Origin: Thermovirgaceae bacterium
Lineage (GTDB): Bacteria > Synergistota > Synergistia > Synergistales > Thermovirgaceae
Reading direction: 5' to 3'
DNA: 64,000 nucleotides
Assembly: GCA_040767805.1 (NCBI GenBank)
Contig: JAXGNU010000005.1
Coordinates: forward strand, 32,001 to 96,000
In this document: positions 54,585 through 59,976 of the stretch, piece by piece
How the letters are laid out: each line of letters opens with the position of its first letter
How positions within the stretch are numbered: position 1 is the stretch's first letter
Notes under the pieces: generated by a model
The model's database searches: none
What the model saw: only the letters and a program-made list of their open reading frames with translations
What the model was told of the DNA's origin: nothing
Program-made: the position numbers and the translations under genes

Positions 54585-55220
54585 CTAGAGCCCTTCCTGG
54601 ACGGCCCTCTCCCAGGCGCTCCCGAGGTGGCAGGCCTCGCCCAGGACGAGGACCTCCAGCCCCCGGGGCGTCTCCTCCAGGAGGGTGATGCTGCCGTTCC
54701 CGAGGCGGAACCTCCAGAAGCTGTCCAAGGGCGCGTCGAAGACCCGGCAGAGGAGGACCTTGAGGACCGCGTCGTGGGAGAAGAGGGCCAGGGTGTCCCC
54801 CGGGCCCGCCAGGATCTCCCTGAAGGCCCCCCATGCCCGGCGGGAGACCCCGTGGAGGTTCTCCCCCCCCGGCATGGTCACCTCCTCCGGCCTGGAGTGC
54901 CAGAGGGAGAGCATCCCCGGCCACAGGCTTTCCACTTCCCCGGCGGTGTGCCCCTCCCAGAGACCATGGTCTATTTCGATCAAGCCCGGGTGGGTCTCAA
55001 TACCTAACCCAAGGAGGGAGGCCGCGGCCTCCGCCGTCCCGGCGGCGCGGGAGAGGGGGCTCGACACCACCCTGTCCACGGAAGAACGCAGGAGCGCCCC
55101 CGCGGCGGAGCGGGCCTGCCCCCTGCCCAGGTCGTTCAGGGGGATGTCCCTCCTGCCCTGGAAGCGCCCTTCCCGGTTCCAGTCCGTCTCGCCGTGCCTT
55201 ACCAGGAAGATCCGCCTCAT
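54585..55220 (-). CDS. Histidine-phosphatase family protein, probable metal-independent phosphoserine phosphatase
   Basis: RHGETDWN, EIDHGLWEG and SHD motifs; directly follows serA. Confidence 0.8.
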   Translation of the reverse strand: MRRIFLVRHGETDWNREGRFQGRRDIPLNDLGRGQARSAAGALLRSSVDRVVSSPLSRAAGTAEAAASLLGLGIETHPGLIEIDHGLWEGHTAGEVESLWPGMLSLWHSRPEEVTMPGGENLHGVSRRAWGAFREILAGPGDTLALFSHDAVLKVLLCRVFDAPLDSFWRFRLGNGSITLLEETPRGLEVLVLGEACHLGSAWERAVQEGL

Positions 55221-56867
55221 CTAGAGGTCCTCCGTAAAGCGGACCTTCACCGCCCAGAGCAGGTCCACATCCTTTTTCAGTTCCTCCAGGACGGGCATGG
55301 GGACGTCGTCGTCGATCTGCAGGGCCCCCACGGCCAACCCGCTCCCGTTCCTGCGCCCCAGGGCGAAGTTGGCGATGTTCGTCCCGGCTCTCCCCAGGAG
55401 GGTCCCCACCTTCCCGATCACGCCGGGGCGGTCGTGGTTGCTGAAGAGGAGTACCGTCCCCTCGGGGATGAACTCTATCCAGTAGCCCCCTATGTTGACC
55501 ACCCTCTGGCGTCCCTCTTCGGTTATCGTCCCCGACACGGTGATGCCCTCCCGGGAACCGGGCGACAGGAGCTCCAGTTCGACCTGGTTGCGCCAGGTCC
55601 CGGGGCCGGTACGGCTCTCCTCGATCCTGATGCCCTTGTCCTCCGCCAGCATCGGCGCCGACATGTAGTTCACCTCGGGACCGTGGGAGTATTCCAGGTA
55701 GCCCTTGAGCCCAGCCACAGTGAAGGGGGAGAAATGATAGGGTATTTCGAAGCACACCGGCTCGTCGGCGGGCGAGAAGAGGGGGCCCCGCAGGCTGACC
55801 TTCAGCCGCGTAGCCGGCTCCCGCGAGAGGTGCGCCGCCAGGTAACCGAGTTTGCGGGCCAGCGAAAGGAAGGCCCTGGTGCCCTCGGGGAGGGACTGCT
55901 CCACGAAAGGTAAGTTCACGGCGTTCTCGCAGGGTTTCCCCTTGAGGGCGGCCAGGAGGTTCGAGCAGGCTATGACGGCCACCGCCGACTGGGCCTCCTC
56001 GGTGTTGGCCCCGATGTGGGGCGTCAAGACCACCTTCTCACGGATATCATCGGCAAGCAGGGGGTTGTCGGGCCGCGGGGGTTCGCCGTCGTAGACGTCG
56101 ATGGCGGCCCCGGCCAGGTGCCCTGAGCGCAGGGCCTCCGCGCAGGCAGCCTCGTCCACGAGCCCGCCCCTGGCGCAGTTGACCAGGTAGGCTCCCGGCC
56201 TGCAGGCTTTTATTGCCTCCCCGTCGATGATACCCCGCGTCTCGGACGTCAGGGGGACGTGCAGGGTGACCACGTCGGCCAGGGACAGGGCGCCCTTGAG
56301 GTCTTCCATCAGGCGGACGCCGGCCCTGTCGGCCTTGGCCTGGGAGACGTAGGGGTCGTAGGCGGAAACCTCCATGCCGAAAGCCCTGCACCGGGCCGCC
56401 ACCTGGGTCCCTATCCTGCCCAGCCCGACGATGAGGAGCCTTTTGCCCGAGAGCTGCCTGCCCAGGAAGCGGCTCCTCTTCCACTCCCCGGAGGTCAGCG
56501 ATTGAAAGGCCTGGGGTACCTTCCTTACCATGGAGAGCATCACGGCCATGGTGTGTTCCGTCGCCGCCAAGGTGTTCCCCGTGGGCGCGTTTATGACCAC
56601 GACGCCCCTGCGGCTAGCTTCGGCCAGGTCGATGTTGTCCAGCCCTACGCCGGCCCTCGCCGCAGCCCGCAGCCTTTTCGCGGCGTCCAGGATCTCGGGG
56701 TCGAGGGGGGTCCCGCTCCGGGTGATCATCCCGTCCACGTCCCCCACCTCCGCGAGGAGTTCCTCCCGGGAGAGGCCCGTTTTGACGAGCAACTGCACCT
56801 CCGGGTCCTGCCGAAGTACATCCAGCCCAGCCTCGGAGATATTTTCCGTTACCAGTACCTTCAGCAT
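55221..56867 (-). CDS. serA: D-3-phosphoglycerate dehydrogenase with C-terminal ACT domain
   Basis: RAGVGLDNID, NAPTGNT, GLGRIG, NCARGG, TPHIGA and DRPGVIG motifs; true start is ATG 56867. Confidence 0.95.
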   Translation of the reverse strand: MLKVLVTENISEAGLDVLRQDPEVQLLVKTGLSREELLAEVGDVDGMITRSGTPLDPEILDAAKRLRAAARAGVGLDNIDLAEASRRGVVVINAPTGNTLAATEHTMAVMLSMVRKVPQAFQSLTSGEWKRSRFLGRQLSGKRLLIVGLGRIGTQVAARCRAFGMEVSAYDPYVSQAKADRAGVRLMEDLKGALSLADVVTLHVPLTSETRGIIDGEAIKACRPGAYLVNCARGGLVDEAACAEALRSGHLAGAAIDVYDGEPPRPDNPLLADDIREKVVLTPHIGANTEEAQSAVAVIACSNLLAALKGKPCENAVNLPFVEQSLPEGTRAFLSLARKLGYLAAHLSREPATRLKVSLRGPLFSPADEPVCFEIPYHFSPFTVAGLKGYLEYSHGPEVNYMSAPMLAEDKGIRIEESRTGPGTWRNQVELELLSPGSREGITVSGTITEEGRQRVVNIGGYWIEFIPEGTVLLFSNHDRPGVIGKVGTLLGRAGTNIANFALGRRNGSGLAVGALQIDDDVPMPVLEELKKDVDLLWAVKVRFTEDL

Positions 56868-58012
56868 GACCGATCCCCTTCCCTTTCCCACGTCTTGAAG
56901 GCTTTGTCCAGAAAACCGCCCCCCGCGTCGATGCCGCATTCCCTGGCTGCGCCGAAGACTCCGCCGGCCAGGAGGCATACCTCCGGCCACCCACCGGGGT
57001 TGTAGTGGGCGATCCGCAGGGTGCCGCCGCCCCTTCCCTGCCCCTCGGCGACGGTGATGCCCATATCTTCGAGGGCCTTCTTCATGGGCCGCTCTTTCCC
57101 TGAGGGCACCTCGAGGGCGGTCATGACGGGCGATCGGTACTCCCTTTCCCTCACGAAAAGTTCGAAACCCATCGCCTCGCAGGCGGCCTCGAAGGAGCGA
57201 GCCTTCCTGCGCGTCCTGTCGGCCCAGGCGTCCCATCCGAAGCCCTCGAGAAGGCGGAGCGACTCGGCCAGTCCGTAAAAGACGCTCACGGGAGGAGTGA
57301 AGGGGTTCTGGGGCCTCCCCTTTTTCAGGAATCTCCTGTGGAGGGTCAGGTCGAAGAAGTATGAGGGGCAGGCCCCCTTGGCGGCCCTTTCCCAACCCCG
57401 TTCCGAGAGGTGGACCAGGGCAAGGCCGGGGGGAGCGAGAAGCCCCTTCTGGGAGCAGGAGGCGAGGCCGTCGATCCCCCACTTCGAGGGGCGGCAGGTC
57501 ATGGCTCCGAGGGAGCTCACGGCGTCGACCAGCACAAGCGGTCCGTCGGCGGGGACCTCCGCCAGGAGTTCTTCCAGGGGGTTGACCACGCCCGTGGAAG
57601 TCTCGTGGTGGGTGAAAAGTAGTGCATCAGCCCCGGGATATCTTTCCAGGGCTTCCCTGACGTGCCCTCTCGTGAATCCCTCGCCCCGGGGTGCGTCAAG
57701 GGCGTGGATCTTGGCGCCTCTCCTCGATGCGATCTCCCGGAAACGGTCCCCGAAGGTCCCGCAGGAGAAGGAGATCACCTCGTCGTCGGGCGACAACAGG
57801 TTGGCCGTCAGGGTTTCCAGGGCCCCTGTGCCGGAACCCGGAAGGATGACCACGGGTTCCTCGACGTCCAGGAGTCTTTCAAGGCGGCCCGTTACTTCCT
57901 CCAGCAGGTCGGACCATTCCTCGCTCCGATGGCTGATCATGGGCCCGGCCGCCGCCCTCCTGACGGAAAAGGGCACGTCCACCGGCCCGGGAGTGTACAG
58001 GTATCGCGTCAT
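56861..58012 (-). CDS. Class V PLP aminotransferase (serine-pyruvate type; probable phosphoserine aminotransferase role)
   Basis: TPGP, HRS, GSGTGA, HETSTG, DAVSS, SQKGL and PFTPP motifs; first gene of the serA operon. Confidence 0.88.
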   Translation of the reverse strand: MTRYLYTPGPVDVPFSVRRAAAGPMISHRSEEWSDLLEEVTGRLERLLDVEEPVVILPGSGTGALETLTANLLSPDDEVISFSCGTFGDRFREIASRRGAKIHALDAPRGEGFTRGHVREALERYPGADALLFTHHETSTGVVNPLEELLAEVPADGPLVLVDAVSSLGAMTCRPSKWGIDGLASCSQKGLLAPPGLALVHLSERGWERAAKGACPSYFFDLTLHRRFLKKGRPQNPFTPPVSVFYGLAESLRLLEGFGWDAWADRTRRKARSFEAACEAMGFELFVREREYRSPVMTALEVPSGKERPMKKALEDMGITVAEGQGRGGGTLRIAHYNPGGWPEVCLLAGGVFGAARECGIDAGGGFLDKAFKTWEREGDRSC

Positions 58013-58032
58013 GGGATCCCCTCCTCGTAGAT

Positions 58033-58064
58033 AAAAAAGGCCGGGAGAACACTTCTCCCGGCCT
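58033..58064 (-). terminator. Intrinsic terminator in the 5' leader of the serine operon (attenuator)
   Basis: Minus strand AGGCCGGGAGAA-GTG-TTCTCCCGGCCT-TTTTT, about 20 nt before the aminotransferase ATG. Confidence 0.88.
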
Positions 58065-58108
58065 GTATCTCCCTGAAACGCTGTGTTTTTTCCCCAGTTG
58101 TCCTGGGT

Positions 58109-58222
58109 CTACCGCGGTCCTCCCCCTGCCGGCAAAGAGAGGCCTGCCCTTCCGGGCCAACCGGAAGAGGAGCTGGAAGAAGAGCTACCGGCCTTGCCGA
58201 CAAAAAGGTAAACCTCGATCAA
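58109..58222 (-). CDS. Putative serine-operon leader peptide (37 aa, Ser8 run)
   Basis: TTG start gives MIEVYLFVGKAGSSSSSSSSGWPGRAGLSLPAGGGPR*. Ser codons AGC TCT TCT TCC AGC TCC TCT TCC at 58186-58163. Purine-rich GGGGAAGTG upstream. Confidence 0.75.
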   Translation of the reverse strand: MIEVYLFVGKAGSSSSSSSSGWPGRAGLSLPAGGGPR

Positions 58223-58255
58223 GAGAAAACACTTCCCCGTGAAAACATTGTCCGA

Positions 58256-58284
58256 TTTATACCACGAGAGCGTTCAAAGGTAAA
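58256..58284 (-). promoter_or_regulatory. Sigma70-type promoter of the serine operon
   Basis: Minus strand TTTACC-17 bp-TATAAA with extended TG. Confidence 0.55.
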
Positions 58285-58413
58285 TAGCCGCCCCGGGCCC
58301 CGGGCGGCGCCTCTTGTTTGACGTATGCGTCTGCAGCCTCTACGATGATGCCTCAAATAGACCCTCCAAGGGGCTCGATCTTTAACGGGAAAACGCGAAG
58401 GGAGATGTAGAAA

Positions 58414-59976
58414 ATGAGGATAGCCTGTGTCCAGATGGAAGCGCCGGAATTGGCCGATTTTGAAAAGACTTTTAGCAGGATCCAACGTCTCCTGGATGAG
58501 GCCCTCCGGCCCGGCGTCGACCTGGTGGTGTTCCCGGAATGCTCATGGCCGGCCTACTTCATCGATCCCGCGGAGAAACAGTCCCTCAAGGAGGCCCTGT
58601 CGCTCAACGAACGATTGATCGACCATATCAGCAGGAAAGCCAGTGAACACGCTTCCTACGTGGCTTTCGGGCTGGTGGAGGAAAAGGACGGGAAGCTCGG
58701 CAACAATGCCATCCTCGTGGACCCCTCGGGAGAAATAGTCCTCAGGGTGTCAAAGATGAACCTTTGGCATTTCGACAGGGACCTCTACGAGCCGGGCCGA
58801 AGTTTTGACGTGGTCGATTCACCCTTTGGGCGGATCGGCCTCCTGATATGCGCCGACGCGCGTCTCCCGGAAATCGCCCGGGTGCTCTCCGTGATGGGGG
58901 CCGATCTCATCATCGACCCGGCGAACCTCACGGGCTACGCCGCTTCACACCAGGGCCTGACTAACCCGCAGCTGGATTTCATGCTGCCCGCCAGGGCTTT
59001 CGAGAACGGGGTATGGTGGGTCCTCTCAAACAAGTGCGGGATCGAATCGGCGGCGGTGCCCTACGTGGGCGGCAGCAGGGTGATATCCCCGGAGGGGGTC
59101 CTCGTCGCCTCGGCAAGCCCGGACAGGGAAGAAGTCATCTTCGCCGATATAGACCTGCCGGTGAAAAGGCCCGCGGCCCTTCCGGAAAGGGCGCCGGCGG
59201 CGTACGGGGTGCTCACTGAGCCCACCGAGAATCTTCCTGTGACGGGGATCACTACCCAACCCGCCATCCCCTCCTGCAATAGCTTTTTCCTGGGAGCCGC
59301 CCAGTTCGGGGCCGGTGATGCCGAAGAGTACGTCCTCAAGGCAGGGAAGCACCTGGCCGCACTGGGGCGGCTGCATGCGTCCGTCGCGGCCCTCCCCCCG
59401 GCCGGCTTTCTTCCCCCCAAGGGGATCCTCCATTTAGCCGAAGCAATAAGGGAAAGGTATGGAGCGGCGATCGGGGGGATGGTCGTCGCCCTCGCCCACG
59501 GCGGGGGTGACGGTGAACCCCTTGGAGTACTTTTCGACGCGGGGAAGATCCTGGCATCCTCCCGGGGCCTTCCGCCCCTCTCGGGATCGGATGTCATCGG
59601 GACGCCCCACGGTAACTTCGCCTTCGTCCACGGCGAGGGGATCGTCCTCCCCGAATACGCCAGGATCCTGACCCTCCTGGGCGCGGATTTGCTGTTTTCC
59701 CTTACGGACACCTTGACGGGGCCTTCCCTTGAGATCGCCAGGACGCGGGCCTACGAGAACAAGGTCTTCCTGGTGCGCGCCGCCTCCCCCGGTGAGGGCA
59801 AGAGGTCCTTCATCTGTGACCCCTACGGGAGGGTCCTCTCCAGTGCCTTCATCGGGGTTGAGCAGGTCTTCGGCTGCCAGGCGGAACTCTTGTCGGCGAG
59901 GTGCAAAGAGGTCGTCCCGGGCACCGACGTGATAAGAGGCAGGAGACCTTCCGACTATCGGTCGCTCTGCCGGTAA
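58414..59976 (+). CDS. Carbon-nitrogen hydrolase (nitrilase superfamily), tandem two-domain
   Basis: Domain 1 has FPEC, SKMNLW and LICADARLPE (E-K-C triad). Domain 2 is degenerate (PEYARILTLLGAD, TRAYENKVF). Confidence 0.88.
   Translation: MRIACVQMEAPELADFEKTFSRIQRLLDEALRPGVDLVVFPECSWPAYFIDPAEKQSLKEALSLNERLIDHISRKASEHASYVAFGLVEEKDGKLGNNAILVDPSGEIVLRVSKMNLWHFDRDLYEPGRSFDVVDSPFGRIGLLICADARLPEIARVLSVMGADLIIDPANLTGYAASHQGLTNPQLDFMLPARAFENGVWWVLSNKCGIESAAVPYVGGSRVISPEGVLVASASPDREEVIFADIDLPVKRPAALPERAPAAYGVLTEPTENLPVTGITTQPAIPSCNSFFLGAAQFGAGDAEEYVLKAGKHLAALGRLHASVAALPPAGFLPPKGILHLAEAIRERYGAAIGGMVVALAHGGGDGEPLGVLFDAGKILASSRGLPPLSGSDVIGTPHGNFAFVHGEGIVLPEYARILTLLGADLLFSLTDTLTGPSLEIARTRAYENKVFLVRAASPGEGKRSFICDPYGRVLSSAFIGVEQVFGCQAELLSARCKEVVPGTDVIRGRRPSDYRSLCR

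Follow-up and report, generated by a model that had tools for sequence, protein, structure and literature searches.

A probable serine-sensing leader-peptide attenuator ahead of a predicted serine biosynthesis operon in the Synergistales

Introduction

Does the reading of serine (Ser) codons decide whether a serine biosynthesis operon is transcribed in the Synergistota? This question is raised by a stretch of 64,000 nucleotides (nt) from a Thermovirgaceae bacterium (assembly GCA_040767805.1, contig JAXGNU010000005.1, positions 32,001 to 96,000), which is called the window here. On its minus strand, a short open reading frame (ORF) with eight consecutive Ser codons is followed by an intrinsic terminator and by genes for a class-V aminotransferase, SerA and a phosphatase. 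A first-pass annotation had proposed that this leader is a serine-sensing leader-peptide attenuator. Comparative tests (an ORF kept in frame, strand-specific Ser richness, terminators, the operon genes and the lack of an Rfam match) support this central proposal, while the details of its pairing scheme held only in part. The leader is quite probably a ribosome-mediated attenuator that senses charged tRNASer and controls the operon for the aminotransferase, SerA and a PspA-like phosphatase.

The classical attenuators are trpL, hisL, pheL, leuL, thrL and ilvL, among which hisL bears the closest likeness to a leader with a run of identical codons. The control of serine biosynthesis is usually described in terms of SerA feedback inhibition, transcription factors or T-boxes, and the serC-serA motif of alpha-proteobacteria is a small conserved hairpin without a leader peptide.

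The leader-peptide attenuation mechanism of amino-acid operons has been described (PMC1183508), and ribosome pausing at Ser codons upon serine starvation has been mentioned (PMC4117421). His leader peptides outside the Proteobacteria were reported for hisS/hisZ in Bacilli (PMC2965389) and for three Firmicutes lineages (PMC9413887), and the Rfam family His_leader is RF00514 (PMC9413887). In the available part of one survey, leader peptides are described for other amino acids only and neither 'serine' nor 'serA' appears in the text (PMC2965389). The available part of another places the his genes of Synergistetes under the repressor HisR and not under an attenuator (PMC9413887). T-box control of serine synthesis is exemplified by serA of Paenibacillus polymyxa (PMC8002221), and the RNA motifs of alpha-proteobacteria include the serC-serA leader motif (PMC1273637). 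The first-pass annotation knew of no characterised serine leader-peptide attenuator and none was found in the full-text literature; subscription surveys and supplements outside this scope could hold such a prediction.

A short ORF with eight Ser codons in front of a terminator

All positions refer to the window, and the features of the leader and the operon are collected in Table 1. The 37-amino acid ORF (58222-58109) and its eight consecutive Ser codons of mixed type (58186-58163) were found on the minus strand as first annotated. The same is true for the three segments (58202-58193, 58144-58127 and 58075-58060) between which mutually exclusive pairings had been drawn by hand. The strong terminator that had been placed just 5' of the first gene was also called by a scan tool (58064-58038 plus a U-tract), with 12 pairs of which 8 are G-C, and the isolated hairpin has a folding energy of -22.5 kcal/mol. 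The six frames of the 1.65 Mb assembly contain just three runs of at least eight Ser codons, and the two outside the leader (C5:132825 and C3:173263) lie, as judged by eye, in apparent coding DNA in another frame. The 246-nt leader is more stable than 200/200 dinucleotide shuffles (z = -2.97).

Conservation of the leader in relatives and in the order

A search of 41 related genomes with blastn detected the leader in seven genomes from three genera; the relatives are metagenome-assembled genomes of the Thermovirgaceae/Synergistales, and an eighth match was merely terminator-like. Loss of the frame of the Ser run in relatives had been named as an observation that would speak against the attenuator. 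Instead, the ORF is in frame in these relatives, has a start codon and carries a run of 5-8 Ser codons, with the Ser clusters at the same place. In the family as a whole (19 genomes in the collection), an orthologue of the aminotransferase with at least 46% identity is present in 16/19, and 15 of these 16 members show a Ser-rich ORF upstream. In the sixteenth, G001, a contig end truncates the leader, so that only the 3' part of its ORF remains. Distant genera have a leader of different nucleotide sequence but retain a short Ser-rich ORF (for example MTKSKKRLLGIGCSGAMGSSSSSWEGDSSS... and ...ASGLSGSGSSSCGFSARV...) and a different hairpin with a U-tract.

The sampling was extended to 151 genomes of the order, of which 60 have an orthologue at an E-value of 1e-70 or better, and all 60 upstream regions were taken. 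The maximum Ser count in any 12 codons, in any frame, was determined for the 330 nt upstream of the gene. At least six Ser in 12 codons were found in 46/60 regions on the sense strand versus 1/60 on the antisense strand of the same DNA; poly-Ser ORFs upstream of orthologous operons are what the first-pass annotation had suggested looking for. A hairpin with a U-tract (-11 kcal/mol or better) is located 3' of the ORF in 52/60 regions. A Ser-rich ORF and a terminator are kept before the orthologous gene throughout the Synergistales even though the nucleotide sequence diverges.

Several additional leader copies were noted. A genome scan of the whole collection with a 20-nt hairpin motif was discarded as a search tool, as the matches listed were mostly chance matches in unrelated phyla; two extra leaders were among the matches listed. 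About 4.5 kb upstream of the intact leader of genome G012, the leader's 3' part occurs as a decayed duplicate that is joined to the first aminotransferase codons (L011, G012:C71:5035-8061). This copy has in-frame stop codons (ATGCAGTAG...) and is a pseudogene remnant. The same genome, for which a contamination figure of 4% is given, has two copies of the operon start on different contigs. On one contig (L006/L010, G012:C126) the leader is broken by NN and its middle part is repeated, which probably reflects a scaffolding join of two strains. In genus g7 (L029 and L030, from genomes G017 and G010) the terminator lies 103-115 nt before the start codon, and a second hairpin with a U-tract is found between the terminator and the start codon (GAGGCAACGCCUCAGUUUUUUU in G010). 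These two leaders may contain tandem terminators or a second control element.

Codon-level signatures of a probably translated leader

The leader peptides were compared in a set of 53 leaders with at least five Ser in 12 codons. Ser accounts for 25.1% of the residues in these peptides versus 6.0% for the three proteins of the operon. None of the six Ser codons is missing (UCY 297, UCR 146, AGY 66), both codon boxes (AGY and UCN) are represented in 36/53 leaders, and a Shine-Dalgarno (SD)-like motif precedes the start codon in 45/53 leaders across the order.

For the window's clade, an alignment of 23 distinct leaders was prepared from seven genomes, two extra genome contigs and 14 metagenome contigs. 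Insertions and deletions (indels) inside the ORF are all multiples of three (4/4 distinct spans, 17/17 gap runs), whereas the spacer between stop codon and terminator contains multiples of three in only 3/13 distinct indel spans. In-frame indels, Ser enrichment and the mixture of codons are the prediction of a translated Ser-codon sensor, and a purely structural RNA would be hard to reconcile with these data.

Cys is also enriched in the 53 leader peptides (5.2% versus 1.5% in the operon proteins, 3.5 times), and the window's own leader contains no Cys. The leaders of families f2, f4, f5 and f6 and of genus g7 (L029-L035, L051-L093) are Cys-rich, with Ser often alternating with Gly, as in SSSCGGSGC and SGSGSSSC. 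The Cys and Gly codons hint at a multivalent sensing of Ser-derived amino acids.

Table 1. Features of the leader and the downstream operon (positions in the window)
Feature	Position	Strand	Details
Candidate promoter	58256..58284	-	-35 TTTACC 58284-58279, 17-nt spacer, extended -10 TGG-TATAAA 58264-58256; by eye
SD-like GGGGAAG	58232..58238	-	9 nt 5' of leader TTG; purine-rich
Leader ORF, 37 codons + stop	58109..58222	-	encodes MIEVYLFVGKAGSSSSSSSSGWPGRAGLSLPAGGGPR; TTG start at 58222, TAG at 58111-58109
Segment 'up', UGUCGGCAAG	58193..58202	-	segment 1 of the first-pass annotation; pairs with UUUGCCGGCA (58136-58127) in the ribosome-free minimum free energy (MFE) fold
Run of eight Ser codons, proposed sensor	58163..58186	-	AGC UCU UCU UCC AGC UCC UCU UCC
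Segment A, tail of the Ser run, UCUUCCGGUU	58159..58168	-	Ser-Ser-Gly-U; partner B (local hairpin) or T5 (proposed antiterminator)
Segment B, CCGGAAGGG	58147..58155	-	9-bp hairpin with CUCUUCCGG (58169-58161)
C:D hairpin, GGCCUCUCUUUG-CCGG-CAGGGGGAGG-A-CC	58116..58144	-	contains segment 2 of the first-pass annotation; ends just 5' of the stop codon
CAGGGAG motif	58069..58075	-	just 5' of the terminator; part of helix 2:3 of the first-pass annotation; pairs the exposed Ser-run tail before T5 is made (model)
Intrinsic terminator	58033..58064	-	T5 AGGCCGGGAGAA 58064-58053, loop GUG, T3 UUCUCCCGGCCU 58049-58038, U-tract (UUUUU)
SD of the aminotransferase gene, GAGGAGGGG	58018..58026	-	sequence
Class-V aminotransferase, SerC-like, 383 aa, first regulated gene	56861..58012	-	PF00266, 91.5 bits
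serA, D-3-phosphoglycerate dehydrogenase, 548 aa	55221..56867	-	TIGR01327, 563.1 bits vs cut-off 454
Histidine-phosphatase family protein, 211 aa, candidate PspA-type phosphoserine phosphatase	54585..55220	-	PF00300, 195 bits

Pairings that may compete with the terminator

The pairing potential of the leader was assessed in the 23-sequence clade alignment. In the terminator, 95% of the cells are paired and 2 pairs are changed on both sides; in the C:D hairpin (-15.1 kcal/mol), 92.4% of the cells are paired and 3 pairs are changed on both sides. For 8/9 pairs of the helix between 'up' and C, a standard pair is present in 19-22 of the 23 sequences (columns 66-74 with 132-140 of alignment A2). 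It corresponds to helix 1:2 of the earlier hand-drawn scheme, and this part of the scheme (58202-58193 with 58136-58127) was recovered as pairable in nearly all 23 members and present in the ribosome-free fold. The hairpin between segments A and B (-13.3 kcal/mol in isolation) has an invariant stem and a variable loop.

The 5' arm of the terminator, T5, has three candidate partners, and compensatory double changes were detected for none of them in the clade. The tail of the Ser run (segment A) differs little in sequence from the 3' arm of the terminator (UCUCCCGGCCU) and forms the more stable of the two duplexes for which an energy was calculated (-15.7 kcal/mol versus -13.5 kcal/mol for C:T5). 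For A:T5, 98.3% of the cells are paired and the variation is one-sided, and for C:T5, 98.4% of the cells are pairable. The third candidate is helix 2:3 of the first-pass annotation, in which the inner 5 pairs are 99% pairable and the outer 7 only 69%. The CAGGGAG motif that contributes to it is not conserved in genus g4, and the energy model prefers to pair the Ser-run tail (58168-58159) with T5. The proposed search for covarying stems thus succeeded for the terminator and the C:D hairpin and did not for any of the antiterminator candidates. The substitution pattern argues for the former two structures, and covariation cannot choose among A:T5, C:T5 and helix 2:3 because the clade is too conserved and all of them are pairable. 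Across the order, the best partner of T5 is better than 95% of shuffles in 16/52 leaders with a terminator, compared with about 2.6 expected.

Predicted dependence of the folding on the position of the ribosome

To model translation, only the RNA 3' of the ribosome footprint was folded, with the footprint ending 12-13 nt past the first base of the A-site codon. As the terminator prevails almost everywhere at equilibrium, the readout was whether T5 (58064-58053) is paired before T3 is made; this is a thermodynamic model in which kinetics are ignored. For the window, T5 is predicted to be sequestered at about 0.8 with the A-site on codons 7/8 to 14/15, the last two or three of which are Ser codons, and these limits shift by one with the footprint offset. 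With the ribosome on later Ser codons or on the stop codon, pairing of T5 reaches only 0.3-0.45. An A-site on any of Ser codons 1-3 makes segment A (58168-58159) the MFE partner of T5, and holding T5 single-stranded would then cost 5.2-9.6 kcal/mol. As long as T5 has not yet emerged, the model places the run's tail on the GGGAG motif (58075-58069). The ribosome-free fold is a long closed structure with T5 free, in which 'up' pairs with UUUGCCGGCA and the Ser run with GGAAGGG.

The same behaviour is predicted for all 23 clade leaders. At the first three Ser codons, the median sequestration of T5 is 0.85, with values of at least 0.7 in 21/23 leaders; in 23/23 it is higher than at the last three Ser codons (median 0.50) and at the end of the ORF (median 0.45). 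The predicted fate of T5 depends on the position of the ribosome in every clade leader; the favoured partner is segment A and not the one of helix 2:3.

Outside the window's clade, 40/41 leaders show more predicted T5 sequestration with the ribosome on Ser codons than with it on the last four codons, a contrast that is partly trivial, as a late ribosome leaves less RNA free. In other families, T5 mostly has its best partner within the 3' part of the ORF, as with GCCGGUCCCG at codons C-R-S-R in family f4 (z -2.4 to -3.7). For leaders of the f4 type, the model predicts read-through by default and termination only when the ribosome reaches the end of the ORF; for the window's clade, termination is the predicted default.

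Absence of known RNA families at the leader

A scan of positions 57900-58450 against Rfam at E-values up to 10 returned eight chance-level matches, the best with 22.3 bits against a gathering score of 50. The T-box family (RF00230) gave no match in this region, and the His, Thr, Leu and Trp leader families and the serC leader family were not among the eight weak matches. The identity of the leader as a T-box or a known riboswitch was rejected on the basis of these chance-level matches. The T-box model does match elsewhere in the source genome, at G000:C10:8507-8730 (80.9 bits) and G000:C14:5123-5356 (65.6 bits), neither of which reaches the gathering score of 93; of the four relatives searched, one (G009) has matches that exceed the cut-off. 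The lineage has T-boxes, since they match at other loci of the same genomes, but not at the serine leader.

The operon downstream of the leader

The start of the aminotransferase gene lies 26 nt past the end of the terminator stem (58038), and its stop codon is overlapped by the start of serA. The aminotransferase scores below the cut-off of every NCBIfam equivalog and has weak similarity to SerC models. A canonical SerC above the model cut-off was found in 0/5 genomes (the source genome is 81% complete, one other 91% and three 99-100%), and because of this the aminotransferase is likely the phosphoserine aminotransferase. The phosphatase was compared with the PspA model NF045917, which it matches with 130.7 bits, below the cut-off of 350 (E = 5.7e-38); among its best NCBIfam matches, alpha-ribazole phosphatase (1.1e-39) is slightly ahead of PspA. 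Family membership and the order of the genes make it plausible that the operon accounts for the complete phosphorylated serine pathway.

Candidate start of the transcript and RNA-library evidence

The promoter-like string upstream of the leader reads TTTACC-17-TGGTATAAA on the minus strand. The consensus scan passed it over, as its -10 hexamer has A as the final base. In 23/23 full-length clade leaders, whose alignments were anchored on a TATAA[AC] box, that box lies 40-140 nt upstream of the core, and the relatives carry GGGAG at the SD position of the leader ORF. A perfect G+C palindrome (GCCGCCCGGGGCCCGGGGCGGC, 58287-58308) lies just upstream of the -35 element of the candidate leader promoter. 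It gave a terminator-like call on both strands and is located between the ser operon and a divergent nitrilase-family gene (58414-59976, plus strand).

The RNA-library data consist of assembled contigs from four (X1-X4) of the seven RNA runs listed, in which uncovered parts carry no meaning. One 152-nt contig of the X3 metatranscriptome covers 58075-58226. Libraries X2 and X4 yielded short contigs inside the aminotransferase gene only, and X1 is probably DNA.

Other candidate leaders in the source genome

The source genome was scanned for short ORFs with amino-acid runs that are followed by a terminator and then a gene, which yielded 11 candidates. The Ser leader has the longest run among them (8 of 8 codons); its hairpin is not the most stable. 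Two further candidates look real. A Tyr-codon ORF, VRLMSSVLRFTRSVRYYAYYSYTYYVGTACWRLTDKDP (...YYAYYSYTYY..., 7 Tyr in 10 codons), is found with a -25.7 kcal/mol terminator on the minus strand of G000:C12. This leader is located 35 nt before a DAHP synthase gene (L234:117-1142:-, where L234 is C12:36015-37564) whose product matches PF00793 with 259 bits and a PF18152 ferredoxin-like domain, and it is a candidate attenuator for aromatic amino acids. A short ORF rich in Phe and Tyr, VRRMNDFFGCYFYGYYFYFALGSPSWRG, with a -22.3 kcal/mol terminator (G000:C6:103849-103939, plus strand, L235) sits just before an ORF of 413-462 aa without a Pfam match. A second aromatic leader is conceivable here, with a transporter as the possible downstream gene.

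Discussion

How would the leader work? In the favoured model, plentiful Ser-tRNA would let the ribosome pass the Ser codons towards the stop codon (58111-58109). Local hairpins would then form (the Ser run with B, and either C:D or 'up' with C), T5 would stay free, and the terminator would form and stop transcription. If Ser-tRNA is scarce, the ribosome would stall on the first Ser codons (58186-58178) and mask 'up' and the front of the run. The exposed tail UCUUCCGGUU (58168-58159) could now capture T5 (GGCCGGGAGA), which would block the terminator and allow RNA polymerase to enter the operon. With no translation at all, termination is predicted for the leaders of the window's clade, comparable to the 'superattenuation' of trp. 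Elsewhere in the order, a segment close to the 3' end of the ORF would pair with T5 in a classical 2:3 helix and would be masked by a terminating ribosome. Translation of the ORF and serine-dependent read-through are inferred from these comparisons, and the exact antiterminator is less certain than the attenuator as such.

A number of observations weigh against this interpretation. The leader starts with TTG and its SD sequence is imperfect. Off-frame readings of this GC-rich genome often contain stretches rich in Ser (1085 short segments with 5 Ser in 8), and a weak Ser cluster by itself means little; the threshold of 5 Ser in 8 was abandoned because such clusters are common off-frame, and strand controls and run length were used in its place. 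In the order-wide sample, 14/60 regions have fewer than six Ser in 12 codons, among them G001, where the contig ends inside the leader, and G039, G099 and G109, which have no convincing ORF. By the criteria applied, 8/60 regions are without a terminator, although several of these have hairpins with poor U-tracts, as judged by eye. The X3 contig speaks for presence in an RNA library and not for a transcript end or translation.

Other objections concern the switch itself. The equilibrium probability of the terminator is 0.98 at nearly all positions of a parked ribosome. Such dominance would be expected for so stable a hairpin and makes this quantity uninformative in the model; since the terminator would form at equilibrium with the ribosome nearly anywhere, the switch has to rest on a kinetic argument. 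The 23 clade sequences are close relatives and not independent, so that their agreement amounts to one observation repeated. A:T5 shows no compensatory double changes, and C:T5 and the inner part of helix 2:3 are as pairable. Segment A may also form its local hairpin with B (-13.3 kcal/mol) before T5 is made. Pairing of A with T5 is limited to stalls at the start of the run, on its first one to three codons, as deeper stalls cover A, and in the model this restriction sits oddly with a run of eight codons. The best duplex of T5 did not stand out from shuffles in the window itself (p = 0.195); the test was borderline in six members of the window's clade (p = 0.02-0.065) and gave p = 0.805 in G004.

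The same attenuator may also use another antiterminator. In that case C (UUUGCCGGC, 58136-58128) or segment 2 (GGCCU-CUCUUUG, 58144-58133) would pair with T5 and its upstream flank once a stall masks 'up' (58202-58193), following the 1:2/2:3/3:4 logic of the first-pass annotation, and the device would respond to a stall on any Ser codon. The conserved pairs between 'up' and C fit this arrangement, as do the pairing potential and energy of C:T5 and the well-kept inner part of helix 2:3. The contig of G001 does not reach the Ser run, and T5 pairs best with C there (z = -2.0); family f4 and genus g6 have a significant T5 partner in the 3' part of the ORF that is topologically C-like. In the energy model, however, C is locked in the covariation-supported C:D hairpin, T5 is no more paired with the ribosome on later Ser codons than at the stop codon, and the outer part of helix 2:3 is poorly pairable and lost in genus g4. 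Taken together, this variant of the attenuator appears rather unlikely.

Another reading would be a structured RNA that senses a signal other than the ribosome, as a riboswitch, a protein-binding site or a tRNA-binding element, with an incidental ORF whose Ser codons are the by-product of a pyrimidine-rich motif. Conservation at the nucleotide level in the window's clade, third codon positions included, the invariable UCU UCC codons at the tail of the Ser run, the unusually stable fold and the T-boxes elsewhere in these genomes are in line with such an RNA. It is nevertheless very unlikely, as no Rfam family, T-box included, matches the leader, and as across families the RNA sequence diverges while Ser richness persists in one frame of the sense strand. 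The use of six Ser codons from two unrelated boxes, indels that respect the frame only inside the ORF, and start codons with SD-like motifs argue in the same direction. The ORF might instead encode a small functional protein or a sequence-specific arrest peptide of the TnaC or SpeFL kind, in which case the speed of Ser-codon reading would not matter. The segment GW(S/P)GR(A/G)GL(P/S/L)(L/V)PA downstream of the Ser run is indeed conserved in the window's clade, but it is conserved at synonymous positions as well and so resembles an RNA constraint, and it is absent from other families, which share only the richness in Ser (and Cys/Gly). A functional peptide is accordingly extremely improbable, and the ribosome-mediated attenuator is retained as the preferred explanation.

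Compared with known systems, the leader resembles the classical enterobacterial attenuators in its short ORF with codons for the pathway product, its terminator and its candidate competing pairings upstream, and in the predicted outcome, which is termination if the ribosome moves on and read-through if it is held up. It differs from them in the amino acid, serine, in the phylum, Synergistota, and in the lack of a sequence or Rfam match. Unlike in the classical cases, the 5' strand of the antiterminator would, in the favoured model, be formed by the last regulatory codons, which resemble the 3' arm of the terminator, and other families of the order add Cys and Gly codons to their leaders. The serine T-boxes of Firmicutes likewise couple tRNASer charging to the attenuation of serine genes through a terminator and an antiterminator; a T-box, however, binds uncharged tRNA directly and needs no translation, and there is no T-box match at this leader. 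With the alpha-proteobacterial serC-serA motif it shares the position of a cis-element upstream of a serC-serA-type operon, but not an Rfam match. The non-proteobacterial His leaders are similar as attenuators found by comparative genomics in phyla thought to be dominated by T-boxes or repressors; amino acid and lineage differ. New here are the amino acid and the phylum, possibly with an unusual overlap of sensor codons and switch strand. A wider claim can be made tentatively and has somewhat less than even prospects: that the leaders form an undescribed serine attenuator class throughout the phylum, for the only major biosynthetic amino acid not known to have a textbook switch of this kind, with the sensor doubling as the switch nucleotides in the window's clade and the Cys and Gly codons of sister families letting one ORF report on the Ser/Gly/Cys branch.

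If the interpretation is true, a serine attenuator would fill a gap in the set of amino acids under leader-peptide control and extend the mechanism to the Synergistota, amino-acid fermenters with almost no studied gene regulation. Two designs are predicted, one with default termination in the window's clade and one with default read-through that is shut off by a ribosome at the end of the ORF in f4. A rule for annotation also follows, as the conserved short ORF is overlooked by gene callers in 60/151 sampled genomes of the order. Because the same genome holds a Tyr leader with a terminator before a DAHP synthase gene, the Ser leader and the Tyr leader together suggest that this lineage relies on leader-peptide control more generally.

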